Assembly: GCA_024276575.1 (NCBI GenBank)
Contig: JAJRWY010000312.1
Location: 1,161-65,160 of the forward strand
DNA length: 64,000 bases
From: Candidatus Binatota bacterium
GTDB lineage: Bacteria > Desulfobacterota > Binatia > UBA1149 > CAITLU01
Direction: 5' to 3'
Each line of letters opens with the position of its first letter. Positions within the stretch are counted from its first letter, which is position 1. A program made the translations under genes and the position numbers. Below the pieces are notes generated by a model that ran no database searches, was not told the origin of the DNA, and saw only the letters and a program-made list of their open reading frames with translations. Positions 5,492 to 57,639 of the stretch are shown here, piece by piece.

Positions 5492-5511
5492 CGGCAGCAA
5501 CCGGCTGCAAG

Positions 5512-7575: not shown

Positions 7576-8886
7576 GTGGAAGGACTCACTAAGTTTTTGT
7601 TCGAAGATCTGTGGAGCGCCGGCATGACCGGTGCTTCAAGGTTCAGCCGTTGGGCGATACAGGCTCTGCGTGTCGCGGTGTTGACGGTCGAGGGCTTTCT
7701 CGACGATCTTTGTTTGTTGAGAGCCTCCGCGCTTACTTACGCGTCATTGATGGCGCTGGTTCCGGTTTTGGCGATTTCCTTCGCGGTCCTGCGCGGGCTC
7801 GGTTGGCGGGGCGCGCGACTGGAGACGCTGATTCTCGAAAAACTCACCATTCTTTCTCCCGAAGCCATCTCCACAGTGGTCTCCTATATAGACAACACCA
7901 GTCTGACCGGTTTGGGAATATTTGGTGGGATTTTGTTGCTGGCCATCTTCCTTTCGCTGATGAGCAACATCGAGCACTCGTTTAACGCGATCTGGGGAAG
8001 CCCGCCGCCGCGAAGTTGGCTGCGCAAGGCCAGCGACTATCTTGGGCTGAGTGTCGCTGCGCCCCTTCTTCTGGCCTCGGCCACCAGTATCACCGCAGCT
8101 TTGCGGCGGGACGCGTTCGTGCAGAGCCTCGAGGCGACTTGGGGTCTCGGAGGCCTTCTCGAAGCATCGATGGCGATGGCGGCGCATGTATTGGTCTGGT
8201 TACTGTTCGCGTTCCTCTACATGTTCGTGCCTAACACAAAAGTTCGCTTGTTTCCCGCAGTGCTGGGGGCGGTGGTGGCCGGTAGTATTTGGGAACTAAC
8301 GCAGGCGGCCTACATCAATTTCCAGATCGGGGTGGCTAATTACAACGCTATCTACGGTGCGATGGCGCAGTTGCCCGTGCTGATGGCATGGGTCTATGTA
8401 AGCTGGGTTATCGTGTTGTTGGGCGCCGAACTCGTTGCCGCGGTGCAGAACCTGGGTTTCTACAGCCACGAGCGGCGCACGGCGAAGTCCGGCTACGCCT
8501 TGCGCGAGCGTCTGGGCTTGAGCATATGCGCCGAACTGGCCCGTGCCGCCCACGCTTGTTCGCCGACTCCCACGGTCGAAGATCTTGCTCATAAGCTCGA
8601 CGCGCCGGTTAAAAACATTCGCGAAATCGTCAACGATATGATTGCCGGTGGCCTGTTGCACTTCGGGGGTGAGGACGGGGAACTGTGCTTCCTTTCTCTG
8701 GCACCGAGCCGGATCCAGGTATCGAGGGTGCTGGATCTGCTTCGCGGTGCCGATCAGTTGGCGTTGCAAGCGGATGCAGGAGCCGGCACCGCCAAGGTTG
8801 CGGACTTGTGCGAGCAGCTCGACAGCCATCGCATGCAGGCTGTTTCCGGTGCCACCATTGCCGACTTAGCGTCGGAGACGAGCTGA
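7576..8886 (+). CDS. YihY/BrkB family inner-membrane protein with a C-terminal soluble extension
   Basis: YihY-type N-terminus (RASALTYASLMALVPVLAISFAVL) and multiple TM helices, followed by a C-terminal extension of roughly 130 aa. Confidence 0.75.
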   Translation: MEGLTKFLFEDLWSAGMTGASRFSRWAIQALRVAVLTVEGFLDDLCLLRASALTYASLMALVPVLAISFAVLRGLGWRGARLETLILEKLTILSPEAISTVVSYIDNTSLTGLGIFGGILLLAIFLSLMSNIEHSFNAIWGSPPPRSWLRKASDYLGLSVAAPLLLASATSITAALRRDAFVQSLEATWGLGGLLEASMAMAAHVLVWLLFAFLYMFVPNTKVRLFPAVLGAVVAGSIWELTQAAYINFQIGVANYNAIYGAMAQLPVLMAWVYVSWVIVLLGAELVAAVQNLGFYSHERRTAKSGYALRERLGLSICAELARAAHACSPTPTVEDLAHKLDAPVKNIREIVNDMIAGGLLHFGGEDGELCFLSLAPSRIQVSRVLDLLRGADQLALQADAGAGTAKVADLCEQLDSHRMQAVSGATIADLASETS

Positions 8887-14143: not shown

Positions 14144-15418
14144 GTGTCACGCCAACTATCGATACTGGGGCTGAATCACCGCACTGCGCCGGTCGAGCTG
14201 CGCGAGAAGCTGGCCATGACCGAAGGCCGCGGCGAAGGCGTGCTCGCGTCTCTTCTTACTCACGACCACATAGAGGAAGTGGTGTTGCTCTCCACCTGCA
14301 ATCGGGTCGAGATTGTCTACTGCAGCCGCGAAGGTCCGATTGAGACTGAGGAGATGACCGGCTTCCTAGTCGAGGGCACCGGGCTGAGTGTGGATGAATG
14401 CGTGCCTTACCTTTACAGTTTCGAGAACCGGGAAGCGGTCAGGCATCTGTTCCGTGTGGCCTCTAGCCTGGACTCCATGGTTGTGGGCGAGCCGCAGATC
14501 CTCGGCCAAATGAAGGAGCAGTTTGACGCGTCGGTGGACGCGCATAGTGCCGGTCCTGTACTTCACCGTGTCTTTCACAAGAGTTTCTCGGTGGCCAAGC
14601 GGGTGCGTTCGGAAACCGGAATCGCCTCGAGAACGGTTTCGGTCGCCTCCACGGCGGTGGATCTGGCCAGTCATATCTTCGAGAGCCTGGAGGGCCGGAC
14701 CGTGCTGCTGATCGGCGCCGGCGACATGGGGGAGACTGCCGCGCGCCATTTCCAGGGCGCGGGGGTCAAGGACATCATGGTGGCCAACCGCACTTTTGAA
14801 AACGGCGTAGCCCTGGCCAGGGAGTTGGGAGGGACGCCGATTCCGCTCGAGCGCCTGTCCAACTACTTGCCGCTCGCCGACCTAGTGGTGGGTTCAGCCG
14901 GGGGTGGGGAGATGCTCAGCGCCAAGGAGGTCAAGGGCCTCATGCGTGAGCGCAAGGGCCGTGCGGTATTCTTCATAGATGTCGCGGTTCCCCGCAACTT
15001 CGATCCTGCGATAAACAAGATCGACGGCGCTTATCTTTACGACATGGACGACCTCTCGTCGGTGGTAGAGGAGAACCTCGAGGAAAGGCAGCGTGAGGCG
15101 GTAAAAGGCGAGGCCATAGTGGAGGGGGAGGTCGACCATTTCTGGTTGTGGTTCGAGAAACTCGGGGTAATTCCCACGATCGTTGCTTTGCGTGAGTATG
15201 CCGAGGAGATTCGCAATCAAGAACTGGAGCGTACCGTTGCCAAGCTCAACGGCATCAGCGAGGAAGACAGGATACGTATAGACCATATGACTCGTTCTAT
15301 CGTCAATAAACTACTGCATAGGCCGACCAGCGTATTGAAACGTGAAGTTCGCCCGGATGAAGAAACTCGTATGTTGAGCGCGGTTCGCAAGCTTTTTTCC
15401 TTGGAGGACGAACTGTGA
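14144..15418 (+). CDS. hemA: Glutamyl-tRNA reductase
   Basis: Signature LSTCNRVEIVY (catalytic Cys) and the NADPH-binding motif LLIGAGDMGE. Confidence 0.92.
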   Translation: MSRQLSILGLNHRTAPVELREKLAMTEGRGEGVLASLLTHDHIEEVVLLSTCNRVEIVYCSREGPIETEEMTGFLVEGTGLSVDECVPYLYSFENREAVRHLFRVASSLDSMVVGEPQILGQMKEQFDASVDAHSAGPVLHRVFHKSFSVAKRVRSETGIASRTVSVASTAVDLASHIFESLEGRTVLLIGAGDMGETAARHFQGAGVKDIMVANRTFENGVALARELGGTPIPLERLSNYLPLADLVVGSAGGGEMLSAKEVKGLMRERKGRAVFFIDVAVPRNFDPAINKIDGAYLYDMDDLSSVVEENLEERQREAVKGEAIVEGEVDHFWLWFEKLGVIPTIVALREYAEEIRNQELERTVAKLNGISEEDRIRIDHMTRSIVNKLLHRPTSVLKREVRPDEETRMLSAVRKLFSLEDEL

Positions 15419-16359
15419 AGCTTCGTGTGGGTACGCGGAGGAGCCCCCTTGCCTTGGCCCAGGCCGGCCAAGGTATGCGCTCGGTAGTGGACAAGGCCGG
15501 GGGCGGTGAGTGGGAGTTGATTGAGATGGTCACTACCGGTGACCGCGTTCAGGACCGTCCGTTGCGCGACGTCGGAGGTAAGGCCCTGTTCGTGCGTGAG
15601 CTTGACGATGCCCTGCTGCGTGGAGATGTCGATTGCGCCATTCATTCGCTGAAAGATGTCCCCAGCGATTTGCCGGCCGGCATCGTAATTGCCGCAGTGC
15701 TCGAACGTGCCGACGTGCGTGATCTGTTGATCAGCAAACGGGGCCTGGCGCCGGCGGAGCTTGCGCCGGGGGCGCTGGTCGGCACCACTAGTTTGAGGCG
15801 TGCATCGCAACTGCTGGCCGTAAACCCGCAGGTGAAAGTCGAAACCATACGAGGCAATGTAGCCACGCGCTTGGGGCGCTTGATGGATGGGGATTTCGAC
15901 GCGACCTTTTTGGCTGCTGCGGGTATCGCGCGGCTCGGTGCCGACCTCGGAGCGGCAAAAGCCCTAGCATTAGATCCTTGGGAGTTTATTCCTGCTCCCG
16001 GGCAGGGGGCGCTGGCCATTACTGCACGTGAAGACGACCGGAAATGCAGGGATTATCTGGCTATGGCCGAGGATGGGGCGGCGCGTGCGGCGGTTGAGGC
16101 GGAGCGCGCGCTGGCGAGAGTTTTCGGCGGCGGTTGCCATCTGCCCATCGGCGTCTATGCCGAGGCCGGGCCGGGCAGCTTAAGGATGATCGCGGTCGTG
16201 GTTTCATCTGATGGGCGCCGTTTGCTGCGCGACGAGGCTTCAGGCGAGGCTAGTCACGCGGCTGCCGTGGGTGAGGCTTTAGGCCGGCGTATGCTGGAAA
16301 ACGGCGGTGCTGAGATCGTTGCCGAAGCGGAAGCGGCTGCAGCTGGGGGGCTGGTCTGA
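15415..16359 (+). CDS. hemC: Hydroxymethylbilane synthase (porphobilinogen deaminase)
   Basis: N-terminus LRVGTRRSPLALAQA; 314 aa; overlaps the hemA stop by 4 nt. Confidence 0.9.
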   Translation: MKLRVGTRRSPLALAQAGQGMRSVVDKAGGGEWELIEMVTTGDRVQDRPLRDVGGKALFVRELDDALLRGDVDCAIHSLKDVPSDLPAGIVIAAVLERADVRDLLISKRGLAPAELAPGALVGTTSLRRASQLLAVNPQVKVETIRGNVATRLGRLMDGDFDATFLAAAGIARLGADLGAAKALALDPWEFIPAPGQGALAITAREDDRKCRDYLAMAEDGAARAAVEAERALARVFGGGCHLPIGVYAEAGPGSLRMIAVVVSSDGRRLLRDEASGEASHAAAVGEALGRRMLENGGAEIVAEAEAAAAGGLV

Positions 16360-16376
16360 GCGGGCGGGTCTATCTT

Positions 16377-17852
16377 GTGGGTGCGGGGCCCGGAGATCCC
16401 GGCCTGCTGACTCTTCGCGGGAAAGAGGCCCTCGAGCGGGCTGATGTAGTCCTCTATTACGCGCTAGCGAACTCCCGCCTGCTCGATTTTGCCCCCGCCG
16501 GGGCTGAACGCATACTCGTCGGACATCGCCACGGTCAGGAGACGGTCGGGCAGAACAGCATCGAGGAGATGCTGGTGGACTACGCTCGACGCGGTAAGAG
16601 CGTGGTTCGGTTGAAGGGCGGAGACCCCTTTGTATTTGGCCGGGGCGCGGAAGAAGCCCAGGCTTGTGCGATTGCGGGGGTGCCATTTTCGGTGATACCC
16701 GGCGTGAGTTCGGCCTCGGCCGCTCCCGCCTATGCAGGCATAGCCCTGACCCACCGTGACCTGTCTTCTTCGTACACAGTGGTGACCGGCCGTCCGGGAC
16801 GCAACCGGGACGGTGAAGAGGTAGAGGCCGACTGGGAATCTTTGGCGCGAGGTGGCGGTACTTTGGTACTGCTGATGGCGATGACGCGAATCTCAGAGAT
16901 CTCCGCGAAGCTAATCGGTGCCGGTATGTCTGCGGAAACTCCTGCGGCTGCGGGTCGCTGGGGAACTCTGCCCCGGCAAAAGACAGTGACCGGATGTCTC
17001 GGAGATATTGCGAATACGGCCGCCGCGGAGTTGATACGGCCGCCGGTGGTTTTCGTGATAGGAGACGTGGTGCGGCTCGCTGAAAGCATCTACTGGTACG
17101 AGAAACTGCCACTGTTCGGGCGTCGCATCGTGGTCACCCGCGCCCGCCATCAAGCTGCGGAATTTTCGCGTCGTCTGGAGGAATCCGGTGCCTGGGTGCT
17201 CGAGTATCCGACCATAGAGATCCGGCGGCTCGAGATAGCCGATAGCCGTCTGGACGAGGTTGCGGGTGCGGATTGGCTCTTGTTCAGCAGTGTCAACGGG
17301 GTCGAGCATTTCTTCGCGAGTTATCTCGCAGCCGGGCGTGACCTGCGCGAGCTTGCCGGCGTAGGAATTGCCGCTATCGGACCGGCCACCGCCGCGGCGG
17401 TGAAGCGGCGTGGCCTGAAGGTGGACGTGCAGCCTTTAGAGTATCGAGCGGAGGCCTTGCTCGAAGCCTTGGGGGAAGTCCGCGGAATGCGGATGATACT
17501 GGCGCGGGCCAAGGTGGCTCGTGAGGTGCTGCCCGAACAGCTCCGGGCGCGCGGCGCCGAAGTCACGGTGCTTCCGGTCTACCAGACCGTGGTGCCGCCT
17601 GATTCTTCGCAGTTCACGGAGTTCGGCGAAGTCGACATGGTTACTTTTACCAGCGCGAGTACCGTAGGGAACTTCGACCGTATAAACGGAGGACGGGCCG
17701 CCGAACTCCTGGCCGGAGTCAAGGTCGCGGCGATCGGACCGATTACCGCTGCGGCTCTCAGGGACAAGGGTATTGGGGTCGACGCCATGCCGCACGATTA
17801 TACGATTCCCGCGCTAGCCGCCGAGATAGAGCGCTGCTTTGCAAATGGCTAA
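16377..17852 (+). CDS. Uroporphyrinogen-III C-methyltransferase / uroporphyrinogen-III synthase fusion
   Basis: N-terminal SUMT domain ([15 protein letters not shown]...[15 protein letters not shown]) followed by a HemD-like C-terminal half of about 240 aa. Confidence 0.85.
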
Positions 17853-17875
17853 GCGCTAAACTAGCATTTTGCATC

Positions 17876-18844
17876 ATGCCTTTTCCTGAGCAACGGCCTC
17901 GAAGACTACGTCGCAACGAAACCATACGCCGTATGGTTCGCGAAACTTCTGTGGGTAGCGACGATCTCATGCTGCCGCTTTTCGTGGTTCCTGGTAGCAG
18001 CGTGGAAAATGAAGTGGCTTCGATGCCCGGAGTGTTTCAGCAATCGGTCGATAAAGTGGTGGAGACCGCCAGGCGTGCCGCCGGTCTCGGAATTCCCGCG
18101 GTGCTGCTGTTCGGTATTCCTGAGCACAAGGACCCGCGGGGCAGCGAAGCCTGGCGACGGGACGGAGTCGTGCAGAACGCTGTGCGGGCGATCAAGGAGG
18201 CGGTCCCGGAGCTATGTGTAACGACCGATGTCTGTCTTTGCGAGTATACCGACCACGGGCACTGTGGAGTACTATCCGGCGATAGTGTCGACAATGACGA
18301 AACCTGCGAGCTATTGGTTGCCGAAGCGGTTTCTCACGCCGAAGCAGGAGCCGATCTCATCGCGCCTTCGGATATGATGGATGGACGTGTGGACGCGATC
18401 AGGGAAGGACTCGACGACAAAGGTTTCGAGGAGATTCCGATAATGTCTTATGCCGCCAAGTACTGTTCGGGTTTTTATGGACCCTTCCGGGACGCGGCGG
18501 AGTCGGCTCCGCGCTTCGGCGACCGGCGCTCATACCAGATGGACCCGTCCAACTCCGACGAAGCGTTGCTCGAGGTCGAGCTTGATATCGAGGAAGGCGC
18601 CGACATTCTGATGGTGAAACCGGCGATGCCTTACCTCGACATAATCCGCCGGGTCAAGGACGAGTTTCAACGTCCACTGGCCGCCTACCAGGTCAGCGGT
18701 GAGTTCGCGATGATAAAAGCGGCGGCGGCGAGGGGATGGCTTGATGAGCCGCGTGTGGTTGCCGAAAGCCTGACTGCGATAAAGCGTGCGGGGGCGGACA
18801 TCATAATTAGTTATTTCGCGTTGGATTTCGCGAAGGGGGTTTGA
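17876..18844 (+). CDS. hemB: Porphobilinogen synthase (delta-aminolevulinate dehydratase)
   Basis: N-terminus [15 protein letters not shown], Schiff-base lysine context, 322 aa. Confidence 0.92.
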
Positions 18845-18877: not shown

Positions 18878-20302
18878 TTGGCGCTAGTCTGCGTGGGGCA
18901 TCCGGCTCTTGTTCATGCTTCGATTAGCCAAGAGAAGAAGATGGGGGAAGAGTTTCTCGCGCAGGCGCGCCTGCAGATCCCCCTGGTTCATGACTACGAG
19001 GTTTTGAGCTTCGTCCGAGAACTCGGAACCCGCTTGGTCGCCACGTTAAAGGATCAGCCTTTCGACTACGAGTTCTTCGTGGTTCGCTCGGACGATATAA
19101 ATGCCTTTGCGGTGCCGGGAGGAAAGATATTTTTTAATGCGGGGCTTATTGCGAGAGTCGAGAGCGAAGACGAGTTGGCTGGTGTCATGGGCCATGAAAT
19201 CGCCCACTCTCATGCTCACCACATAGTTCGGCAAGAGCAAAAGAGTGCCCCAACCAACTATGCAGCTCTGCTCGGCATGCTGCTCACCGTCATTCACCCG
19301 GCACTTGGTGTCGCCGCCCTGTCGGCGGCCAACGCACAAACGCTGAAATATCAGCGTGATTTCGAACGCGAAGCGGATTTCCTGGGAGTCGGCTATGCGC
19401 GCGCAGCCGGTTTCGAAGAGGAGGCTATAATGCACTTGCTTCGCAAGTTGTTTGCGGAGCAGCAACTCAATCCCACGCTTGTTCCTCCCTATTTGAGTTC
19501 GCACCCCTTGACCGGCGAGCGTTTGAGCAACTTGGAGGCGGTGCTGGGGAATAACGAGTGGACGGGTAAGAAACTCGAGCGAAGTTACCGGCTGAAGCGT
19601 GTGCAGGCCATCGTGCGTGGGTTGTCTCAGCGTCGTGAGCAGGTAGTGCCTGAGTTTGAAAGAATGCTCGAGAGCGCCTCTGCGACCGAACGCCCCCTAG
19701 CGCTGGAACTCATGGGAATAATGATGACCCATGGCGAGGACTATGCGCTTGCACGGCCCTACCTCGAACAGGCGCGAGACGCCGGACGTAACGTGGATAG
19801 AGAACTCGGGAGAGTCTATGCACGGCTGGGAATGTCGGAGAAGGCGCTCGAGTATCTGCAGAGGGCTGCCGAGGCGCACCCGGACGATTGGAACGTTTTG
19901 GCGGACCTTGGACGCACGGAGTACCAACTCAAAGACTACGAGGGTGCGAAAGAACACCTGGAGAAGTCGGTACGTTTGTATCCCTACCTGCCGGAGGTGT
20001 TGCGTACTCTGGGAAGAGGGCTTGGAGCCTCGGATCAGGAAGGCGAGGGCTTCTACCGGTTCGGCCAGGCCTCGGAGTTGGAAGGGCATCTGGCGCAGGC
20101 GCACTATTACTACACGAAGGCGCTGGAAACATTGCCCGAAGATCATCCGTTGCGCAAGGAACTCTCCACGCACATGACGGAAGTAGAGGAAGAGGTGGGG
20201 GAAACGGAACCGGTCCCGCATCCGCGCCGCAGGGGAGACCCACCGCGTGACCCCCGCCGCGGGAGGTTCCGGCCTCAGGAAATAGGGCCGGGTATTCAAT
20301 GA
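18878..20302 (+). CDS. M48-family zinc metalloprotease with C-terminal TPR repeats (BepA/YfgC-like)
   Basis: HEIAHSHAHH (HExxH) in an M48 fold, followed by TPR-like repeats and an Arg/Pro-rich C-terminal tail. Confidence 0.75.
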   Translation: MALVCVGHPALVHASISQEKKMGEEFLAQARLQIPLVHDYEVLSFVRELGTRLVATLKDQPFDYEFFVVRSDDINAFAVPGGKIFFNAGLIARVESEDELAGVMGHEIAHSHAHHIVRQEQKSAPTNYAALLGMLLTVIHPALGVAALSAANAQTLKYQRDFEREADFLGVGYARAAGFEEEAIMHLLRKLFAEQQLNPTLVPPYLSSHPLTGERLSNLEAVLGNNEWTGKKLERSYRLKRVQAIVRGLSQRREQVVPEFERMLESASATERPLALELMGIMMTHGEDYALARPYLEQARDAGRNVDRELGRVYARLGMSEKALEYLQRAAEAHPDDWNVLADLGRTEYQLKDYEGAKEHLEKSVRLYPYLPEVLRTLGRGLGASDQEGEGFYRFGQASELEGHLAQAHYYYTKALETLPEDHPLRKELSTHMTEVEEEVGETEPVPHPRRRGDPPRDPRRGRFRPQEIGPGIQ

Positions 20303-47078: not shown

Positions 47079-47849
47079 TTGCCAAGGCCGGCTGTTGCGG
47101 GTTTGGAAGGAACTATGAGCATGGGAGCCGCTAGATTGCGAGAAACGGTTGTGAAAGAGGTTCCATCCTATATTTTCGCGAAGGAGCCGGTCGAGGGACG
47201 GGTCAAAACCCGCTTGTGTCCACCGCTAAGCCCACAGCAAGCCGCACGCTGCCACCTTGCCTTCGTCTCGGATATCGTTACGCGTACGGCGAAGCTCGAT
47301 GGTGCGGCCGTCCACCTTGCCTGTTCTCCCGATGGGGCAAGCCCGGTGTTGGCTCGGCTGGCCGGAGAGGCGGGCGTTGAACTGGTGGCCCAAGGCGAGG
47401 GTGATCTTGGTGAGCGCATGGGCCGGGCGCTGCAGCGGTCGGTGGGAGATTCCGGCGCTGGGTTGATCCTGGGCGCCGATGTGCCCGATCTTCCATTGGG
47501 TGTTCTGGAGCGCGCTCTGTGGCAGGTCAGCACAGGCGGTAGCGACGTAGTGTTGGGGCCGGCTGAAGACGGAGGATACTACTTGATCGGCGCCCGTTGC
47601 GAGGTGCCGGGGCTTTTCGATATCGAAGCTGAATGGGGTGGCAGCGGCGTTCTCGAGGCGACCGTGCGTAGGATCGAAAATGCGGGGGCTTCTTTTGCAT
47701 TGCTCCCGCGCTGGTGCGACGTAGACTCATACGGGGATCTAGTGCGCTTGGCCGGGCGTTTGCGTGGCACTGCGCCGGGTGCGCAAACGGACAGCCGGGC
47801 TACGCGCAAGCTGCTTGGGGAATTGGTTGCCGAAGGAGTCTCGCTCTGA
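47079..47849 (+). CDS. DUF2064 family protein (MobA-like nucleotidyltransferase fold)
   Basis: FAKEPVEGRVKTRLCPPL motif typical of DUF2064/TIGR04282. Confidence 0.6.
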   Translation: MPRPAVAGLEGTMSMGAARLRETVVKEVPSYIFAKEPVEGRVKTRLCPPLSPQQAARCHLAFVSDIVTRTAKLDGAAVHLACSPDGASPVLARLAGEAGVELVAQGEGDLGERMGRALQRSVGDSGAGLILGADVPDLPLGVLERALWQVSTGGSDVVLGPAEDGGYYLIGARCEVPGLFDIEAEWGGSGVLEATVRRIENAGASFALLPRWCDVDSYGDLVRLAGRLRGTAPGAQTDSRATRKLLGELVAEGVSL

Positions 47850-48904
47850 GGCGTATCGCAGTCTTTCGCTGGGACATCGACAAGACCTACCTCGATTCGG
47901 ACTTCGAGTCGTTGCGCGCACTGATGCGTGTGCCATTTGAAAAAGGCCGCGATAAAGTGGCGCTGCCGGGTGTGGTGGAACTGATAAAGGGATTGCGCAC
48001 GACTGCCTCGAAGCAGGGGCGCGACAGCCGTCTCTTCTTCATCACCGCGTCACCTCCGCAGATCGGGACAGCCATTCGCGACAAGCTCGAGCTTGATGGT
48101 ATCGACTACGATGGTATCGGCTTCAAAAACCAGTTCCGCCATTTGATGCGCGGAGACTTCGGAGCCTTACGCGAGCAACTTGGCTATAAGCTCAGTGAAC
48201 TGCTCGGCGGCCTCGCGCAGATCCCTCCGGGATCCCGGGAATACCTGTTCGGTGATGACTGGGAGTCGGATCCTTTCGTGTATTCGCTCTATGCCGACAT
48301 CGTGGACGGCCGCGTCGGCGCGGGCCGGGTCCTGAGTTTGCTCGAGAAAGCGGGTGTGGAGGATCTTTACGTATCCAAGGTCGAGAGGTTCCTGGCGCTT
48401 CGTGAGGATCGCGGACATCGCGTTGGCGGGATCTATATTTTGCGCCAGCGCATGCGCCGGGCCGAGGAACTCGAGTGTTTCGGCCGCCGCTTGTCTTGGT
48501 TCGATGACTATTTCGAAGCGGCGCTCTTGCTCCATTGTGAACGGCTGCTGTCGTCCGAGGCGGTTTGTGAGATTGCCGCCGCCACGCGGTTCGGGCCTGC
48601 GCACTTGAGCGCTTGCTTAGAGGGGGTGGCTTCGGGCGGAAATCGCCGCAGTTTCAAGGTACCGGCGTCGTTGCGACGACAGCTATTTGGCGCCGGCTTG
48701 CTGGAACCCAGCTCCGGGGCCGGGCCGGTCGCTGCCTTCTTCGCCCCGGCGCTGCAGTCATGTAGACGGGCGCTGAACGCCTTGCGAGCAGCCGGTGCAG
48801 TGCCCGCCTACGAGCGTTTGCTCCCGACTTGGTCGAAGCGTGCCAAACGTGGTGCCGAGTCGGAGCTGGGAGAGAAGCATGAAAGTCGAGAAGCCGCAGA
48901 ATGA
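47714..48904 (+). CDS. HAD-like hydrolase-fold hypothetical protein; start uncertain
   Basis: Motif I-like WDIDKTY (DxDxT) near the N-terminus. The only canonical in-frame start upstream of this motif is the GTG at 47714, which overlaps the previous gene by 136 nt. Confidence 0.4.
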   Translation: MRRRLIRGSSALGRAFAWHCAGCANGQPGYAQAAWGIGCRRSLALRRIAVFRWDIDKTYLDSDFESLRALMRVPFEKGRDKVALPGVVELIKGLRTTASKQGRDSRLFFITASPPQIGTAIRDKLELDGIDYDGIGFKNQFRHLMRGDFGALREQLGYKLSELLGGLAQIPPGSREYLFGDDWESDPFVYSLYADIVDGRVGAGRVLSLLEKAGVEDLYVSKVERFLALREDRGHRVGGIYILRQRMRRAEELECFGRRLSWFDDYFEAALLLHCERLLSSEAVCEIAAATRFGPAHLSACLEGVASGGNRRSFKVPASLRRQLFGAGLLEPSSGAGPVAAFFAPALQSCRRALNALRAAGAVPAYERLLPTWSKRAKRGAESELGEKHESREAAE

Positions 48905-50182: not shown

Positions 50183-50932
50183 ATGTCAGGTCACTCTAAG
50201 TGGAGTTCCATCAAGCACAAGAAGGCGGCCAACGATGCCAAGCGTGGCAAGCTGTTCACCAAGCTGATCAAGGAACTTACCATCGCGGCGCGATTGGGCG
50301 GTAGTGATGCCGACGCGAACCCCAGGCTGAGAACGGCGATCAATAACGCCCGTGCTCAGAGCATGCCCAACGACAACATCGAGCATGCGATCAAGAAGGG
50401 CGCCGGGGAACTCGAAGGCGCCGACTATGTGGAGGTTACCTACGAAGGTTACGGCGCCGGGGGGATGGCGGTGATGCTCGAGGCCTTGACCGACAACAAG
50501 AATCGCACAGTGGCCGACATCAGGCACCTTTTCAGCAAGCACGGCGGTAATCTAGGGGAGAATAATTGCGTGAGTTGGATGTTCGACCGGGTCGGCCAGA
50601 TTCGCGTTGCTGCCGAGGGAGTGGAGGAAGAGGATGTCTTTGAGATGGCGGTGGAAGCCGGGGCCGACGATGTAGCCGGCGAAGACGATTCCTTCGTGGT
50701 GACTACCGCCGTGGACCAACTTGAAAACGTGCGCTCGGCTCTAGAAGCGGGCGGACTTCGAATCGAGGCCGCCGAGATCGCGTTGGTTCCGCAAAACTTC
50801 GTCAAGCTGTCGGGGGGGGATGCAGCGAGAGCGCTGAAGCTCATCGACGCCCTGGAAGACAACGACGACGTCCAAAGAGTCTCGGCCAATTTCGAAATCG
50901 ACGACGAGGAACTCAAACGGCTTTCCGCTTGA
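50183..50932 (+). CDS. yebC: YebC/PmpR family DNA-binding transcriptional regulator
   Basis: MSGHSKWSSIKHKKAANDAKRGKLFTKL. Confidence 0.92.
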   Translation: MSGHSKWSSIKHKKAANDAKRGKLFTKLIKELTIAARLGGSDADANPRLRTAINNARAQSMPNDNIEHAIKKGAGELEGADYVEVTYEGYGAGGMAVMLEALTDNKNRTVADIRHLFSKHGGNLGENNCVSWMFDRVGQIRVAAEGVEEEDVFEMAVEAGADDVAGEDDSFVVTTAVDQLENVRSALEAGGLRIEAAEIALVPQNFVKLSGGDAARALKLIDALEDNDDVQRVSANFEIDDEELKRLSA

Positions 50933-51080
50933 GCCAGGAATCCTTTGACCAGATTGTCTCAGGCGCCTGCTTGGGGCCGGAGCCGGGCGCGAATCGTTTC
51001 GGTGGGCCGGCCGCTTGTTGGGCGGCCTTCTCGTTTGCGCGGAGTCGGCACGCTGCCGGCCCTCGTTGCCGGATTTCGCC

Positions 51081-51626
51081 ATGCGCATAATGGGCATTGA
51101 TCCGGGTACCATTATTACCGGCTGGGGAGTAGTCGAGGCCCAAGGCTCGCGTCTGACCTGCGTGTCTTCGGGCGTGCTGCGCGCCGGCCATGGTGAGATC
51201 GGTGACCGCCTAGCGCAAATCTATGCAGGGCTGGCTACTTTGATCGCCGAGTACCGGCCCGATGGTGTCGCTTTGGAACGGAACTTTCTGGCCAGGAACG
51301 TGCAGTCTGCTTTTCGTTTGGGTGAGGCCAGGGGGGTGGCGATGGCGGCGGTAGCCGCTGCGGGTTTGCCGCTGAACGAGTATGCCCCGATGAGTGTCAA
51401 GAAAACCGTAGTCGGCTATGGGCGTGCCGACAAATCTCAAGTGCAGGCCGGCGTGGCGAGATTGCTGGCACTCGACAGCTTGCCGCTCGAAGATGAGGCC
51501 GATGCGCTCGGCGTAGCACTTTGTTACGTTCTTAGCGGTGGTTTCGAGAGCAAGGTGCAGCAGGCGCTGGCTGCCGCGCCGGCGCCGCGGCGAAGACCCG
51601 TACGACGTAGACGGGGCGGGGGTTGA
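51081..51626 (+). CDS. ruvC: Crossover junction endodeoxyribonuclease RuvC
   Basis: MRIMGIDPGTIITGWGVV; acidic catalytic residues. Confidence 0.9.
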   Translation: MRIMGIDPGTIITGWGVVEAQGSRLTCVSSGVLRAGHGEIGDRLAQIYAGLATLIAEYRPDGVALERNFLARNVQSAFRLGEARGVAMAAVAAAGLPLNEYAPMSVKKTVVGYGRADKSQVQAGVARLLALDSLPLEDEADALGVALCYVLSGGFESKVQQALAAAPAPRRRPVRRRRGGG

Positions 51627-51632
51627 TTCAAG

Positions 51633-52208
51633 ATGATCGCGCGTCTCCGTGGAGAACTGGAGGAGAAGTGCCCTAACGAGGTGCTCATCGACGTTGCCGG
51701 CGTTGGTTATGGTGCTGCGATCTCCCTGAATACTTTCAACAAGCTTCCCGAGTGCGGAGAGGAAGTCTCTTTGTACGTGGTGACGAACTTGCGCGAAAAC
51801 GCGCTGGAATTGTTTGCTTTTGCCGATGGTGCAGAGCGGAGCCTATTTAATGTGTTACGTACAGTATCCGGGATAGGACCTCGATTGGCAATGGCTATTC
51901 TGTCCGGCATCGACAGTGATGAGTTTCCGCGGGTGGTCGCCGAGCGCGACCTTGCGCGCCTGGTGTCAATCTCTGGAGTCGGCCGCAAGACCGCCGAACG
52001 CATCCTCGTAGAGCTTACCGACAAGATGCCGGAGCCGGGTCCGGTCAAAAGCGAGAGCGGCCCGTCGGCCGATGCCGTCGCGGCGCTGTGCTCCTTGGGC
52101 TACAAGAGAGGGGAAGCGCTCAGAGCGGTAAGCGCGGTTCGCGCCGACGGTGGCGACGGCGGCGGGGTCGAGGAGTTGATACGCGGCGCCTTGGCTAGAC
52201 TGTCGTGA
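51633..52208 (+). CDS. ruvA: Holliday junction branch-migration protein RuvA
   Basis: MIARLRGEL...IDVAGVGY and helix-hairpin-helix motifs (ISGVGRKTAERIL). Confidence 0.92.
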   Translation: MIARLRGELEEKCPNEVLIDVAGVGYGAAISLNTFNKLPECGEEVSLYVVTNLRENALELFAFADGAERSLFNVLRTVSGIGPRLAMAILSGIDSDEFPRVVAERDLARLVSISGVGRKTAERILVELTDKMPEPGPVKSESGPSADAVAALCSLGYKRGEALRAVSAVRADGGDGGGVEELIRGALARLS

Positions 52209-52231
52209 GCACACTGCGTGGTTGTTGAAAG

Positions 52232-53266
52232 ATGCGAAGCAACGAGAATAGAGATGCTCTGAGCGAAGCTTCCGAAACGGATCCGGATTTTTCGCAAGAA
52301 CCGAGCCTTCGGCCGCAAACACTCGACAGTTACATCGGGCAGCGCCGCATCTGCGAGAATCTCGATATCGCGATACGGGCAGCTTCGCGGCGCAACGAGC
52401 CTCTCGACCACCTACTGCTCATCGGGCCGCCTGGTCTCGGCAAGACTTCGCTTGCCCACATCGTCGCGCGTGAGATGGGCGGCCGTGTGCATCAGAGTAG
52501 TGGCCCGGTAATCGAGAAAGCCGGTGATCTGGCGGCCATACTGACCTCGCTGGAGCGCGGCGATGTATTGTTCATCGACGAAATCCACCGCCTTGGTAAA
52601 GCCATAGAAGAGATACTTTACCCGGCGATGGAGGATTTTCGCATCGATTTGGTGATCGGAGAGGGGCCTTCGGCACGCTCGGTGTCCTTGAACTTGGCTA
52701 GGTTCACGCTGGCCGGTGCCACCACGCGCTCCGGTTTGCTCAGTGCTCCCTTGCGCTCGCGCTTCGGCAATACCTTCCGGCTCGATTTCTATGATGAGAA
52801 GGAACTCGCGGCTATCATCACACGCTCGGCGGCTTTGATGGAGGTAGAGATCGAGCAGGACGCCGCCCGCGAAGTGGCCTCGCGTTCGCGCGGCACGCCA
52901 CGCATCGCCAATCGCCTGTTGCGGCGCTTGCGCGACTTTGCGGAAGTTCGCGCCGCCGGGCGTATCGACCTCGAGGTAGCCCGGCAAGCGTTGGAAACCT
53001 TGGGGGTCGACGAAGCGGGCTTCGATACCATGGACCGTCGTTTGCTGTCGGTCATTGCAGAGAATTTCGAGGGTGGCCCGGTCGGGCTCGACACGCTTGC
53101 CGCTGCCGTAGGTGAAGATGCCAGCACCATCGAGGAAGTATACGAGCCCTATCTCATTCGCTGCGGGTATTTGCAGAAGACGCCGCGTGGCAGGGTCGCC
53201 ACGGCGCGCGCTTATGACCATCTGAAGCTCAACTCTCCCGTGCCACAGGAGAGTCTGTTCGAATAG
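52232..53266 (+). CDS. ruvB: Holliday junction branch-migration ATPase RuvB
   Basis: Walker [18 protein letters not shown], sensor motifs. Confidence 0.95.
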
Positions 53267-53278
53267 CATGCGCGGCGG

Positions 53279-55516
53279 TTGTTTATGAGCGGCGCACCTA
53301 GGCCGGACATCTCCATTTCGCGCGAGGAAAGGGCGCGCCGACGCCGTGAGGTTGCGGTGATTCTCGCGGCCGGTCTTGCGGTGGTGTTCTTTGCCGTGTG
53401 GGAAATCGGCCGGCCGGCTGGGCGTGGAGCCACCGGTAACGTTGTCTCCTTCCTACTGGTAAACCTCAACATAGTTCTGCTTCTAGTCGTGGCGTTCCTG
53501 GTTTTGCGAAACATCGTGAAGCTGGTGATTGACCGGCGCCGGCGTGTCCCGGGTAGCCATCTTCGCGGGCGGCTGGTCTTTGCTTTCGTTACCATTGCGC
53601 TATTCCCGGCGGGTTTGATGCTCGTCATTTCGTATCAATTCGTGACCAGCAACATCGATGATTGGCTCGACAGCGAGGTCGAGCAGTCGCTCGAAGGTGC
53701 CTGGGAACTGGCCCATACCTACTATCGGGATTCTGCGGATGCGGCGCTTGCGCATGCGCGGGCCCTGGCTGCGGAGGCTGTGGAGAAGCGGCTGCTGCAG
53801 CCGTCTTCACGGACGAAATTGCGAGAGTTGGTTCTCGAACACCAGCGCGCTTACAAGCTGGGAACCATCCAGATAGTCAACTCCTCAGGCGAACAGGTAC
53901 TGGCTTTGTTCAACGAATCCACTCCTACCGGGATGCCGCTATATCCGGACGCTGAATTGATGTCAGAGAACCTCGAAGGGCGTGAGGCTACCAAAGTAGA
54001 GGCTTACGGCGAAAGTGACGTGATCAGCGGTGCGGTGCCGATACTCGACAGTAAAGGAAAAGTGCTGGGTGCGGTGGTGGTTGATTATTTCGTTGAGCGC
54101 AGTATCCGGCGCTGGAGTGAAGACATACTGAAATCCTTCAGCGAGTTCCGCCAGCTAAAGCTCAGCAAACAGCCTTTCAAGAATCTCTACGCGATTACTC
54201 TTGCTCTGGCCGCGGTCGCGGTAGTGTTCTCGGCTACATGGCTGGGTATTTATATGGCCCGGGGGGTTACCGACCCCATTGGGCGGTTGGCGGAAGCTAC
54301 TGAACGGGTTGCCGGCGGTGACTGGGAGGTTCGGCTCGAAGAAGCAGGCGGTGACGAAGTCGGCATGCTGGTCAGTGCTTTCAACACCATGACTTCACAG
54401 CTCAAGGCAACCCACGATGATCTCGATGAGAGGCGCCGTTACATCGAGAATGTGCTCGGACATATCGAAGCGGGTGTCGTGTCCATCGATGAAGAGGGGC
54501 GCATCGGTACCGTGAACTCAGCCGCAGTGTCGTTGTTGGGCCTCGACGCTGAAGGGCTTGCGGGGCTAGCTGCGGTAGAGACGTTTCAGGAGGCCGGTTA
54601 CTCGGAAATGGCGTCGCTGTTGAAAGATTTGAGTGCCGGAGTCGTAGCTTCCGGCACCCGTATCAACGTCAAGCGGGAACAGGAAGGGCGGACGCTACTG
54701 GTTACTGCGACTGAGTTGAAGCGCGTGAGTGGTGAGCGGGCGGGCTTCGTTCTTTTTGTCGAAAACGTATCACAGATAGTCGAAGTTCAGAGGATGGAGG
54801 CCTGGCGCGAGGTTGCTAGGCGTATCGCCCATGAGATCAAGAATCCACTGACTCCCATCCAACTGTCGGCGCAAAGGCTGGGCAGGCGCTTGCGTTCACG
54901 GCTCGGCGGGGAAGACGCCGAGCTACTGGAGCGCAGCGTGGAAACGATCGTCTCTCAAGTAGACACATTGAAGCAGTTGGTCAACGAGTTCTCGCGCTTT
55001 GCGCAAAAGTCGGAAGGAGACAAGCGCCTACACGATTTGAACCAGTTGGTCGAGGAGACGATCCCTTTGTACAGCGAGTCGCGCCCTGACATCAAAGTGG
55101 AATTCTCCCGTGCCGAAGAGCTTCCGGCACTGATGTTGGACCGGCAGTCGGTAAAGCGCGTTCTGATCAATCTGCTCGATAATGCGGTGGCGGCTCTTTC
55201 GGCGGACGAGGCCGTGCGTGAAAGCGGCGTCGAGCCGCAAATAGAACTTCGGACCTCTTTTGATGAAAGAACCTCGCGCGTGGTTCTCGAAGTCGCGGAC
55301 AACGGCCCAGGAATCGCTGCCAAGGACAAACCGCGGGTATTCGAGCCGTACTTCTCGACCAAGGACGATGGGACCGGCCTCGGCCTGGCTATTGTTGCTT
55401 CGGTGGCTGCCGACCACCAAGCCTTCGTTCGAGTCAGGGACAACCATCCGCGAGGCAGCCGTTTCGTGATAGAATTTCCCATCGTGCCCAAGGAGAGAGA
55501 GGTCCGAGATGCCTGA
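53279..55516 (+). CDS. NtrY-like sensor histidine kinase (2 TM, HAMP, PAS, HisKA, HATPase)
   Basis: Two N-terminal TM helices, HAMP and PAS regions, H-box HEIKNPLTPIQLSAQRL, N-box LLDNAVAAL, G1 DNGPGI and G2 GTGLGLAIV. Confidence 0.85.
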   Translation: MFMSGAPRPDISISREERARRRREVAVILAAGLAVVFFAVWEIGRPAGRGATGNVVSFLLVNLNIVLLLVVAFLVLRNIVKLVIDRRRRVPGSHLRGRLVFAFVTIALFPAGLMLVISYQFVTSNIDDWLDSEVEQSLEGAWELAHTYYRDSADAALAHARALAAEAVEKRLLQPSSRTKLRELVLEHQRAYKLGTIQIVNSSGEQVLALFNESTPTGMPLYPDAELMSENLEGREATKVEAYGESDVISGAVPILDSKGKVLGAVVVDYFVERSIRRWSEDILKSFSEFRQLKLSKQPFKNLYAITLALAAVAVVFSATWLGIYMARGVTDPIGRLAEATERVAGGDWEVRLEEAGGDEVGMLVSAFNTMTSQLKATHDDLDERRRYIENVLGHIEAGVVSIDEEGRIGTVNSAAVSLLGLDAEGLAGLAAVETFQEAGYSEMASLLKDLSAGVVASGTRINVKREQEGRTLLVTATELKRVSGERAGFVLFVENVSQIVEVQRMEAWREVARRIAHEIKNPLTPIQLSAQRLGRRLRSRLGGEDAELLERSVETIVSQVDTLKQLVNEFSRFAQKSEGDKRLHDLNQLVEETIPLYSESRPDIKVEFSRAEELPALMLDRQSVKRVLINLLDNAVAALSADEAVRESGVEPQIELRTSFDERTSRVVLEVADNGPGIAAKDKPRVFEPYFSTKDDGTGLGLAIVASVAADHQAFVRVRDNHPRGSRFVIEFPIVPKEREVRDA

Positions 55517-56780
55517 GACGATTTTGCTTGTAGATGACGATGCCAAGGTTCGCGAATCGATACGTGGCGTTCTCGGAGATGAAGGCTATGAGGTCGTAAC
55601 TGCATCCAACGGCGTTCAGGCCATGGATGCGGTTGCGGTGCATAACCCCGATCTCATCTTGCTTGATTTGTGGATGCCGGAGATGGATGGCATCGAGTTC
55701 TTACAGCAGGCTGGGTCCGGGGACTCGGCGATTCCGGTGATCGTGATCTCGGGCCACGGCAACGTGGAAACGGCGGTCCGCGCGACCAAGCTTGGAGCCG
55801 TGGATTTCGTCGAGAAGCCGTTTTCCATCGACGGGCTTCTAGCGGCGGTAAACGGAGCCTTGAATCGTTTCTCCCCCGACGAAGGTGCCGCTAGCGTCGT
55901 GGCCGGGCAATTGCCTTCGGCCGGTGGCGCGACGGCTGGTGTCAGCCAGCGCACGTTGGCGCAAAGCGTGGTCGGTGGCGGACTCGGCTTACATAGCGGG
56001 GTGAGGACCGGATTGATCTTGCAGCCGATGCCGCCGGGGAGCGGGATAAGTTTTGCGAGTATAGCGGGCGAGGGCAAAGTGCTCGCACATGTGGACAACG
56101 TGGATTCCACCGGCTACGCGACCACACTGTTCGACAAGGGGACGGTTGCGCGAACGGTAGAACATCTCATGGCGACCCTGCACGCTTATGGGATCACCAA
56201 TCTGCTGGTGAAGATAGAAGGCGAAGTGCCGATTCTAGACGGCTCAGCGGCCGAACTCTGCCAGTTGATAGACTCGGTTGGTGTAGAAGACCAGCCCTCG
56301 GCCATCGCTCCCATAGTGATCGAGGAGGAAGTGCGCATAGACGCCGGTCCGGACGAATTCATCGTGATTCGTCCTCATGACGGTTTCGAAGTAACCTACG
56401 AACTTTCTTATCCGCCGCCGGTGGGGGAACAGAGTTACACATTTTGCTTCGAAGGAGCCGGGTCGTTTCGTTCGCAGATCGCTCCGGCGCGTACCTTCGG
56501 CTTTGTCGAGGAGATCCGCGCGTTGGAAGGAGCGGGGCTAGGCCAGGGAGGACAGCTGAGCAACTTTATACTGATCGGCGAGGGCAGGATCGTCAACACC
56601 GAATTACGCTTCCCCGAGGAACTCGCGCGCCACAAGATCCTTGATATCATGGGAGATTTCTATCTCCTCGGGGCACCGATACGAGGCTCGCTGCACGCGC
56701 GAAAAACCGGGCATTCGCAGAACATCGCGTTGATGCGATTGCTAAGCGAGGGCAGAGGGAGAAGCGCGTCGAGTCGTTGA
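55509..56780 (+). CDS. lpxC: Response-regulator receiver domain fused to UDP-3-O-acyl-N-acetylglucosamine deacetylase
   Basis: Receiver residues 1-120 carry all phospho-acceptor positions (LLVDDD, LLDLWMP, VISGHG, FVEKP). Residues ~135-423 are a complete LpxC with RTL...GLGLHSG, EHLMATLHAYGI, HKILDIMGDFYLLG and KTGHSQN zinc and catalytic motifs. It is a single uninterrupted ORF that overlaps the kinase stop by 8 nt. Confidence 0.8.
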   Translation: MPETILLVDDDAKVRESIRGVLGDEGYEVVTASNGVQAMDAVAVHNPDLILLDLWMPEMDGIEFLQQAGSGDSAIPVIVISGHGNVETAVRATKLGAVDFVEKPFSIDGLLAAVNGALNRFSPDEGAASVVAGQLPSAGGATAGVSQRTLAQSVVGGGLGLHSGVRTGLILQPMPPGSGISFASIAGEGKVLAHVDNVDSTGYATTLFDKGTVARTVEHLMATLHAYGITNLLVKIEGEVPILDGSAAELCQLIDSVGVEDQPSAIAPIVIEEEVRIDAGPDEFIVIRPHDGFEVTYELSYPPPVGEQSYTFCFEGAGSFRSQIAPARTFGFVEEIRALEGAGLGQGGQLSNFILIGEGRIVNTELRFPEELARHKILDIMGDFYLLGAPIRGSLHARKTGHSQNIALMRLLSEGRGRSASSR

Positions 56781-56838
56781 GTCTCGCCGGCGAGACTCAA
56801 CGTAGCCGCCCGTCGTGCGGCAAGCCTTAGCTGCATGT

Positions 56839-57639
56839 TTACTTGAGCCCTAGCAGGCGGGGTCTACCGAGGGGGCCGCTTAGACGGTAGCTGCGCCAGC
56901 CCTCTGTGTTCTCGGTGGCTTTGGGAAGCAGGCCGAGCAGGACCCGCGCTTTGGCCGAAGAGTCAGCGGCTCGCACCTTGAAATACAGATCTGTTTGGTA
57001 GCTACCGTCGTCCCTGCGCGAGATGTGGCCGCGGGTCAGATGCCATTGCAGGCCGGCGGCCCTAGCCTCTGCGGATTCGATCTCGAGCTTGCCGTTGCTC
57101 AACCGACCCTTGGCTGAAACCGCATCGAACTCCCATTCGCCGATGGCCATGCCCGCCTTGCTGATGCCGCGCCCGTCCGCGTTGGCGAGCGGCAGGTGCC
57201 CGCTCACGCTGCCATCATTTGCTTCGAGCTCCATACTGCCGTTTCCGTCCGTTACGTCGATTCGTGCGTTGAAGTCGCCGCTTAGAGAAAGAAACCCCAA
57301 GCGAACGCACTTGGCGGGGTCGCCGTCAAGCAAGCGCAGTTGGAAATCGTCGGGGCCCGTAAAGTTACCCTCGATCGACCCTCCGCAGTAATCGGTGTGG
57401 AAACCTCCGAACAGTCCCAGGTATGCCGACTGAAGGTTCAATTCATAACCGTCTTTGGCAAGCCGTAGCCCACCTACTCTATAACCGAAGGGAAACGCCG
57501 GCCGTGCCGAAAGCAGCGATACTTGAACACCGCGTGGTGAAAGGCCCGCACGCAGTACGCTGGCGAGAAGACGCTCGTGCGGAAAGGTGACGGCTGCGAA
57601 AAGCGCCAGCAGGGCCGCGAACACCAGCAAGCGTTTCAT
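56839..57639 (-). CDS. gspN: Type II secretion system protein N (GspN-like)
   Basis: Signal peptide and predicted periplasmic protein of 266 aa, sitting immediately downstream of gspM in the cluster. Confidence 0.5.
   Translation of the reverse strand: MKRLLVFAALLALFAAVTFPHERLLASVLRAGLSPRGVQVSLLSARPAFPFGYRVGGLRLAKDGYELNLQSAYLGLFGGFHTDYCGGSIEGNFTGPDDFQLRLLDGDPAKCVRLGFLSLSGDFNARIDVTDGNGSMELEANDGSVSGHLPLANADGRGISKAGMAIGEWEFDAVSAKGRLSNGKLEIESAEARAAGLQWHLTRGHISRRDDGSYQTDLYFKVRAADSSAKARVLLGLLPKATENTEGWRSYRLSGPLGRPRLLGLK

Follow-up and report, generated by a model that had tools for sequence, protein, structure and literature searches.

A receiver-LpxC fusion protein and its neighbouring NtrY-type histidine kinase in Candidatus Binatota: a putative two-component system for lipid A biosynthesis

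Two adjacent genes were analysed in a stretch of 64,000 nucleotides from a Candidatus Binatota bacterium (GenBank assembly GCA_024276575.1, contig JAJRWY010000312.1, positions 1,161 to 65,160 of the forward strand; this whole 64-kb stretch is called the window below, and position 1 is its first letter). The first encodes an NtrY-type sensor histidine kinase, and the second encodes a protein, here termed REC~LpxC, that joins a response-regulator receiver domain (REC) to the lipid A biosynthesis enzyme LpxC, a zinc amidase. The comparisons described below support the reading that the pair forms a dedicated two-component system derived from NtrY/NtrX, the regulator of which would have exchanged its AAA+/DNA-binding output for LpxC. 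The NtrY-derived kinase, as the cognate partner, probably phosphorylates REC~LpxC at Asp53 and so exerts direct control over LpxC activity. The coordinates of all features are collated in Table 1.

The fusion protein and its kinase

REC~LpxC combines a receiver, a flexible linker and a catalytic domain on one polypeptide, which is the layout of CheB-type enzyme-output regulators. The phosphorylation pocket of the receiver consists of the acidic pair D9/D10, the phospho-acceptor D53 (nt 55665-55667), S81, F100 and K103. In an alignment of 130 family sequences D9, D10 and K103 were found in every member (130/130), and D53 and S81 in 128 members each. Judged by its sequence, the LpxC domain is intact and is predicted to be catalytically competent: the fusion scored 228.1 with the TIGR00325 (lpxC) model (equivalog cutoff 187.25), and the catalytic and zinc residues E218, H219, T329, H375, K376, D379, D383 and H402 were identified, corresponding in this order to E78, H79, T191, H238, K239, D242, D246 and H265 of the Escherichia coli enzyme (zinc ligands H79, H238 and D242; catalytic residues E78 and H265; in addition T191, K239 and D246). 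All eight are invariant in 130/130 family members, and the motifs TVEHL, ARTFGF, HKILDxxGD and GH were recovered in the alignment to the solved LpxC of Pseudomonas aeruginosa. The initial annotation, which was made from the sequence of the window alone, had described the output of the pair as an enzyme, and this description is borne out by the intact domain and its aligned, invariant catalytic residues.

The C-terminal tail of the fusion is short (15-23 residues past the catalytic His). The long C-terminal region of E. coli LpxC, in which the FtsH degron is located (PMC12444477), is absent, so that another mode of control would be needed for REC~LpxC. The linker, the length of which varies between 28 and 52 aa across the REC~LpxC family, is the sole poorly conserved stretch of the protein. 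An AlphaFold2 model of the fusion contained two confident domains joined by a disordered linker (mean predicted local distance difference test score (pLDDT) 81.5; pLDDT <50 at residues 122-141; predicted template modelling score 0.78). The last value would exceed the expectation for a model in which the 270-residue domain alone were confidently placed. Values of pLDDT below 50 were also obtained for GLGQGGQLSNFILIGEGRIVNTE (residues 343-366, within the LpxC domain), although the conservation of this segment (0.88-0.94) is among the highest in the family; a mobile element or an interface may lie here.

The kinase contains HAMP, PAS, HisKA and HATPase_c domains in this order, each with a score that exceeds its Pfam cutoff, and the predicted phospho-acceptor histidine is residue 518, inside RIAHEIKNPLTPIQLSAQRL. 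An alternative in-frame ATG at 53285 would give a kinase of 743 aa, which is the length of an identical database protein (P0121). The Pfam family NtrY_N (PF19312) was matched marginally at residues 26-201 (25.7 bits; cutoff 23.2) and is present in most of the kinase homologs too, and a weak Cache/PDC-like similarity was recorded for residues 142-268 (dCache_3, 27.1 bits; sCache_3_2, 27.0 bits). The full NtrY architecture that had been annotated initially thus stands with respect to HAMP, PAS, HisKA and HATPase, whereas the two transmembrane segments that had been included in it have to be replaced by the four transmembrane-like segments seen in the hydropathy profile.

The 8-nt overlap between the kinase stop and the start of the receiver-LpxC gene was confirmed by direct reading of the sequence, and a Shine-Dalgarno-like run (GGAGAGAGAGG) was found just 5' of the REC~LpxC start. 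The overlap is peculiar to this genome: the distances between the two genes in relatives are mostly 9-38 nt, so that tight adjacency rather than overlap is the conserved trait. Co-translation as a cognate pair had been deduced from the overlap. The pairing itself is upheld by its occurrence in 21 of 21 loci (see below), but the term co-translation is not, and translational coupling or co-transcription should be substituted for it.

Conservation and relationship to NtrY/NtrX

A genome scan with one genome per species yielded 30 loci with full-length REC~LpxC (L001-L024, L027-L032) and two further loci with a longer REC-AAA-LpxC form (L025, L026). In the protein database, the best clusters (at least 120, with 57-70% identity) all carry REC and LpxC domains; they are mostly from Candidatus Binatia or "Deltaproteobacteria" metagenome-assembled genomes (MAGs) and are annotated plainly as LpxC. 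The family is distributed over Binatia, Thermodesulfobacteriota, Nitrospirales, Aminicenantes and Entotheonella, that is, over several phyla-level groups.

An NtrY-like kinase is encoded immediately upstream of the fusion in every one of the 21 loci in which the fusion is at least 52% identical to that of the window, with kinase identities of 41-67%. Given this two-gene arrangement in 21 independent loci at such kinase divergence, chance is not an issue. The longer block yebC-ruvC-ruvA-ruvB-histidine kinase-REC~LpxC is complete in 13 loci (L001, L002, L004, L006, L008-L013, L024, L028 and L030). The comparison of synteny with related genomes, which had been suggested as a check, therefore came out in favour of the pairing. 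Besides this pair, the 64-kb window contains no second REC, histidine kinase or LpxC, no NtrX-like regulator and no other lpx gene, and a second LpxC was likewise found in none of the related loci (about 20 kb each).

Several Binatia loci carry a second, divergent pair of histidine kinase and REC genes about 5 kb downstream of REC~LpxC (minus strand; L008:16255-17323, L012:16211-17676 and L030:15872-16920). The proteins of this pair are about 30% and 34-39% identical to those of the window pair, and the window lacks it. Some contigs with the fusion are labelled Promethearchaeota, Clostridia, Limnocylindrales or Hyphomicrobiaceae (L025, L016, L031; P0013, P0029, P0055); by their gene content and relatives they are Binatia- or Aminicenantes-like and probably represent mis-binned or mislabelled MAGs.

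Descent of the kinase from NtrY is indicated by several comparisons. Its homologs carry the Joint Genome Institute (JGI) label NtrY. A full-length alignment of 731 aa with P0204, the genuine NtrY of Roseomonas stagni, gave 32% identity (E about 5e-79); P0204 is encoded in the locus dus-ntrB-ntrC-ntrY-ntrX-...-hfq-hflX (L081). The match of the window kinase to NtrB is limited to the catalytic core (27%). Helix 1 of the DHp domain carries the phospho-histidine and the residues for partner specificity. This helix reads RIAHEIKNPLTPIQLSAQRL in the window kinase, RIAHEIKNPLTPIQLSAERL in genuine NtrY and MLAHEVKNPLSGIRGAAQLL in NtrB, so that it differs from genuine NtrY at one of 20 residues and is clearly distinct from NtrB. 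Loci from Azospirillum and Stella, which had been drawn in by REC similarity, were discarded as NtrY/NtrX comparisons because their kinases (about 520-560 aa; 24% identity, over the core only) do not belong to ntrYX; the Roseomonas ntrBC-ntrYX locus was used instead.

The receiver shows the corresponding relationship to NtrX. It is 50% and 47% identical to the receivers of the NtrX-like regulators of loci L083 and L082, respectively, 44% identical to genuine NtrX and 33% identical to NtrC. Its top NCBIfam match is NtrX (NF051870), with 128.4 bits from the receiver part only (whole-protein cutoff 600), and its top matches in the PDB are a Fis-family regulator (4d6x) and a nitrogen assimilation regulator (5m7n). 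REC~LpxC has neither an AAA+ (Sigma54_activat) nor an HTH_8 domain and falls outside NtrX both by architecture and by the NtrX cutoff; with the match confined to the receiver, it is to be regarded as derived from NtrX but not as an NtrX. In place of NtrX (REC-AAA+-HTH_8), the usual cognate partner of NtrY, the gene downstream of the kinase encodes REC~LpxC. The expectation voiced initially, that a kinase of this type should be followed by a REC-AAA-HTH transcription factor, is correct for the distant kinase homologs, which precede REC-Sigma54_activat-HTH_8 regulators (in the genuine ntrBC-ntrYX locus L081 and in L082 and L083). The NtrY-like DHp helix and the NtrX-like receiver together argue that both sides of the phosphotransfer interface were kept while the output was changed.

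Ordered by the relatedness of their kinases, the partners in these loci can be arranged in a series. Locus L083 contains the histidine kinase with a REC-AAA+-HTH_8 regulator. In L082 (positions 5102-9465, plus strand; Polarisedimenticolaceae MAG GCA_036274395.1, Acidobacteriota), a stand-alone lpxC gene (298 aa) ends 2 nt before the gene of an NtrY-like kinase, and the gene of a REC-AAA+-HTH_8 regulator comes next; this apparent lpxC-ntrY-ntrX-like operon is a plausible pre-fusion state. The next form is a 728-aa protein with REC-Sigma54_activat-AAA_lid-LpxC architecture (L026:8681-10867 and L025:792-2978, both plus strand), and the short REC~LpxC of the window is the last. The long fusions (about 730 aa) constitute a family of at least 120 clusters (P0241-P0360; 49-97% identity), which databases call NtrX in some cases and LpxC in others. 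In two of the three sampled loci (L084 and L086, but not L085), the gene directly 5' of the long fusion encodes an NtrY-like kinase. Their AAA+ module has a Walker A motif (GEAGTGK) and a Walker B-like LFLDSID and lacks GAFTGA. A Fis-type helix-turn-helix (HTH), suspected by eye in the long fusion of L026, was not supported, since HTH_8 was undetected by Pfam even at E = 0.1. The BLAST alignment of the long fusion to NtrX extends through the C-terminal HTH region of NtrX, and the C-terminal segment may at most be a degenerate HTH remnant.

When the LpxC domain alone was used as the query against 1.84 billion representatives, the fused LpxC proteins formed a distinct top tier (205-337 bits, with the domain offset by about 140-460 residues), and ordinary stand-alone LpxCs started at about 200 bits or less (36-45% identity). 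Two candidates for stand-alone members of the fused clade were rejected: P0380, from a contig of 902 bp, is a fragment, and P0390 comes from a frameshift-ridden assembly with pieces of ruvB and the kinase just upstream. The distribution fits a single ancient fusion that would have been maintained by selection, with later loss of the AAA+ module in some lineages.

Proposed mechanism and alternatives

In the mechanism proposed here, the loop of about 185 aa would allow the kinase to sense a cue in the periplasm or the membrane, the PAS domain might add the perception of a cytoplasmic one, and the kinase would autophosphorylate on His518. The phosphoryl group would then pass to Asp53 of the receiver, which is tethered to the LpxC domain through the disordered linker of about 25 residues, and the phosphorylation state of the receiver would set LpxC activity post-translationally. 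An envelope signal would in this way alter lipid A flux without transcription or proteolysis. We infer from sequence comparison that phosphotransfer takes place and that it changes LpxC activity, and likewise the direction of this change and the nature of the signal; that the signal would be passed directly to lipid A flux is a well-founded conclusion of this kind. The active site of CheB is obstructed by the receiver, and phosphorylation of the receiver lifts this block. An analogous release of inhibition, in which the unphosphorylated receiver would restrain LpxC and phosphorylation would release or stimulate it (phosphorylated receiver, LpxC on), appears to be the most likely detail of the mechanism, albeit a less certain one.

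Several points weigh against direct control by the kinase. The divergent fusions of Aminicenantes and Entotheonella (42-47% identity) have no neighbouring kinase, and kinase control is therefore not family-wide. The score of the NtrY_N match barely exceeds its threshold. LpxC works as a monomer, so that a receiver output of the dimerisation type would have no obvious catalytic rationale. Further partners of the kinase could be encoded elsewhere in the genome, and should a separate housekeeping LpxC also be encoded there, REC~LpxC may be a paralog with an auxiliary or specialised role.

In Candidatus Entotheonella, the orphan REC~LpxC (L022:9983-11314 and L023:9983-11317) lies between mutS and lolA, and both receivers have Glu in place of the phospho-acceptor Asp (D53E) and Tyr in place of the beta5 switch Phe (F100), which suggests a receiver that is independent of phosphorylation and possibly constitutively "on". 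The D54E variant of NtrC is the classic constitutively active allele. The Entotheonella exchange resembles it, and if the orphans work, an active-like receiver is compatible with LpxC activity, which would favour the assignment of the phosphorylated state as the active one. In the Aminicenantes-type loci, in which the linker of the fusion is about 50 aa long, REC~LpxC follows the gene of a protein (about 1000 aa) that has a ClpA/ClpB-like double AAA+ arrangement (AAA, AAA_2, ClpB_D2-small) and weak TPR matches below the Pfam cutoff. In L016 and L017 there is a 4-nt overlap between the stop of this ClpA/B-like gene and the start of REC~LpxC, and unfoldase-based control of LpxC may operate in these loci.

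The latter arrangement is one of the observations from which a different role of phosphorylation could be argued, namely control of the abundance or location of LpxC. The receiver would then be a degron or adaptor handle (with a logic of the RssB/CtrA type) or a module for docking to the membrane or to a partner, with the signal deciding whether LpxC is degraded, sequestered or recruited. Of the ways in which LpxC is controlled, proteolysis is the best known (by FtsH/LapB/YejM in E. coli and possibly by Lon in alphaproteobacteria; PMC12444477), the overlapping ClpA/B-like gene hints at a link to an unfoldase, a Lon gene is found near the NtrX~LpxC locus L085, and the long disordered linker could act as an initiation site. 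Beside the Binatia-type pair, however, no protease or adaptor gene is conserved (its neighbours in the window are ruvCAB and a convergent type II secretion cluster), and a Clp-like neighbour is confined to loci that lack the kinase; we consider control of abundance or location unlikely. A comparably low probability is assigned to REC~LpxC as an accessory paralog beside a canonical LpxC, through which the kinase would, under particular conditions, add deacetylase capacity or an altered preference for acyl chain or substrate instead of gating bulk lipid A synthesis. The separation of the fused clade from stand-alone LpxCs (36-45% identity), as is often seen with paralogs, and the spread of the family over several phyla-level groups would agree with such a role. 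It is opposed by the passing of the TIGR00325 equivalog cutoff, by the catalytic residues that are invariant in 130 sequences, by the position of the gene within the conserved housekeeping block yebC-ruvCAB, and by the lack of a second LpxC in the 64-kb window and in the related loci.

The adjacency of the two genes could finally be an operon accident or relic, with an NtrX-like factor elsewhere as the partner of the kinase and the receiver as a phosphorylation-independent structural or dimerisation module. Orphan family members, two of them with D53E, do indicate that a kinase next door is dispensable for the function of the fusion. Nevertheless, the kinase adjoins the fusion in all 21 close loci over deep divergence, the phosphorylation pocket is kept in 128-130 of the 130 members, the interface residues of the NtrY/NtrX type are retained on both partners, no other REC is present in the window, and the long NtrX~LpxC fusions also follow NtrY-like kinases; a relic of this kind is very improbable. 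Direct control of LpxC activity through Asp53 is accordingly preferred over these explanations. A broader proposal is tentative and somewhat doubtful: REC~LpxC might be the only, and essential, LpxC in the Binatia-type and related carriers, and might have arisen stepwise from an NtrYX system with control over lpxC transcription, by operon linkage, NtrX~LpxC fusion and loss of the AAA+ and HTH domains.

Genomic setting and comparison with known systems

The genes yebC, ruvC, ruvA, ruvB and the kinase gene are separated by 82, 6, 23 and 12 nt, respectively. With the ruvB end only 12 nt 5' of the kinase start, all six genes from yebC to REC~LpxC are probably co-transcribed. The signalling pair thus appears to be co-transcribed with genes for the resolution of Holliday junctions; this linkage is clade-wide and has no obvious functional rationale. 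In a promoter and terminator scan around the operon, site counts were not above those of shuffled sequences, and the sole feature was a weak hairpin after the REC~LpxC stop.

Table 1. Features of the kinase/REC~LpxC region (window coordinates, except for the last row).
Feature	Position	Strand	Size, basis or remarks
yebC-ruvC-ruvA-ruvB synteny block	50183..53266	+	open reading frames (ORFs); RuvB Pfam matches
NtrY-type sensor histidine kinase gene	53279..55516	+	745 aa from TTG 53279; ORF and Pfam
Kinase N-terminal membrane region, three transmembrane (TM)-like segments (aa 25-43, 58-76, 99-117)	53351..53629	+	Kyte-Doolittle window-19 peaks 2.5-3.0
Predicted periplasmic sensor loop of kinase, aa 118-305	53630..54193	+	about 185 aa; between TM3 and TM4 by hydropathy
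Kinase TM4, aa 306-324, runs into HAMP	54194..54250	+	hydropathy peak 2.17
Kinase HAMP, aa 326-376	54254..54406	+	Pfam PF00672, 59 bits
Kinase cytoplasmic PAS, aa 389-495	54443..54763	+	Pfam PAS 32.6 bits, PAS_4 29 bits
Kinase HisKA/DHp, aa 509-579	54803..55015	+	Pfam HisKA 46.4 bits
Kinase HATPase_c catalytic domain, aa 621-735	55139..55483	+	Pfam PF02518, 72.5 bits
Overlap of kinase stop and response-regulator start, ATGCCTGA	55509..55516	+	8 nt; response-regulator ATG at 55509, kinase TGA ends at 55516; read from sequence
REC~LpxC fusion gene	55509..56780	+	423 aa; ORF, Pfam and NCBIfam matches
Receiver domain, aa 5-115	55521..55853	+	Pfam Response_reg (PF00072), 108.9 bits
Flexible inter-domain linker, aa 121-143	55869..55937	+	mean conservation 0.25 in family alignment
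LpxC deacetylase domain, aa 147-412	55947..56744	+	PF03331, 260.6 bits, profile positions 1-266 of 268
Weak terminator-like hairpin past REC~LpxC stop, possible operon end	56814..56837	+	consensus scan only
Aminicenantes-type entries	L016:6972-10001; L017:7041-10001; L018:7058-9982; L027:4549-7548; L031:7048-9981; L020:32-1408		

The rest of the window is ordinary core chromosome, with a convergent type II secretion cluster (gspG-gspM) downstream of the pair. At the 3' end of this gspG-H-I-J-K-L-M cluster, an ORF of 266 aa without a Pfam match (56839-57639, minus strand) occupies the position of GspN; it is kept beside gspM in L002 with 32% identity. A BepA/YfgC-like protein with Peptidase_M48 and TPR domains, of a family of proteases for the biogenesis and quality control of the outer membrane, is encoded at 18878-20302 (plus strand), directly 3' of a heme biosynthesis cluster (hemA, hemC, cobA-hemD and hemB; 14144-18844). 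For an ORF of 396 aa at 47714-48904 (plus strand), the catalytic domain of APP1 phosphatidate phosphatase was matched below the threshold (25.7 bits; cutoff 27.1), and the product may be an enzyme of lipid metabolism. The listed start of this ORF is simply the first GTG that follows a stop codon, and the ORF overlaps its neighbours, so that the true start may lie further downstream.

Among known systems, NtrY/NtrX of alphaproteobacteria (Brucella, Rhodobacter sphaeroides, Caulobacter) has a kinase of the same layout (multi-transmembrane NtrY_N-HAMP-PAS-HisKA-HATPase), and the receiver of the window protein is of the NtrX type. NtrYX has been linked to homeostasis of the envelope and of lipopolysaccharide (LPS) and represses lpxC transcription (PMC7240162; PMC12444477). 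Deletion of ntrYX in R. sphaeroides increased lpxC mRNA 8.8-fold and raised LPS, and no binding of NtrX at lpxC was observed (PMC7240162). In the window regulator, by contrast, LpxC takes the place of AAA+/HTH_8, and the genomic context is yebC-ruvCAB instead of ntrBC; control would be post-translational and directed at one enzyme, whereas NtrYX acts by transcription on a regulon of dozens of genes. The long NtrX-like~LpxC fusions of Thermodesulfobacteriota MAGs contain an LpxC of the same clade as that of the window (55% identity; receiver 48%). They keep a central AAA+ domain and a divergent C-terminal segment, where the window protein has only the disordered linker of about 25 aa.

An lpxC-dedicated two-component system of the former "Deltaproteobacteria" is DVU2931-DVU2933-DVU2934 of Desulfovibrio vulgaris, which was compared with the window pair by description only. 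Its NtrC-family response regulator DVU2934 has lpxC as the single target, orthologs are reported from Acidobacterium and Geobacter, and the orthologous operon of Syntrophobacter has lpxC as its neighbour (PMC3333781). The D. vulgaris system is transcriptional and involves DNA binding upstream of a separate lpxC, whereas the enzyme of the window is covalently fused to the receiver; the lpxC-histidine kinase-REC-AAA-HTH string of L082 (Acidobacteriota) resembles the D. vulgaris type. CheB, the GGDEF proteins PleD/WspR and the HD-GYP protein RpfG all have the receiver at the N terminus and the catalytic domain at the C terminus, with a flexible linker in between, as does the window fusion, the output of which differs in being a zinc amidase of lipid A biosynthesis.

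According to a review from 2025, LpxC is controlled by FtsH/LapB/YejM proteolysis, by activation through MurA, possibly by Lon, by Ght, and indirectly at the transcriptional level by NtrYX/ChvGI, and almost nothing is known of LpxC regulation outside Proteobacteria (PMC12444477). FtsH/LapB/YejM (E. coli), MurA (P. aeruginosa) and Ght (Neisseria) act through separate partners or proteolysis and belong to Proteobacteria, whereas the enzyme of the window carries its own phosphorylatable domain. The words "receiver" and "fusion" do not occur in the review (PMC12444477), and in the full-text literature, with most subscription journals outside the coverage, no description of a receiver-LpxC protein or of LpxC as the output of a response regulator was found. 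The receiver-LpxC fusion therefore appears to be undescribed as a mode of LpxC control; its components are known, and it would be an enzyme-output response regulator within signalling of the NtrYX type.

LPS synthesis is controlled mainly at LpxC, the committed enzyme of lipid A biosynthesis, which is also a target of antibiotics. If the proposed mechanism is true, a sixth, mechanistically distinct form of LpxC control and a new class of enzymatic output for response regulators would be added, in a combination of fusion and kinase that is widespread in uncultured lineages. The series from separate genes through the operon and the long fusion to the short fusion would represent an unusually clear case of a signalling pathway that was shortened, with direct control of the enzyme in place of transcriptional control. 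The series is also a hint that the connection of NtrYX with lpxC in alphaproteobacteria may be ancient rather than incidental.

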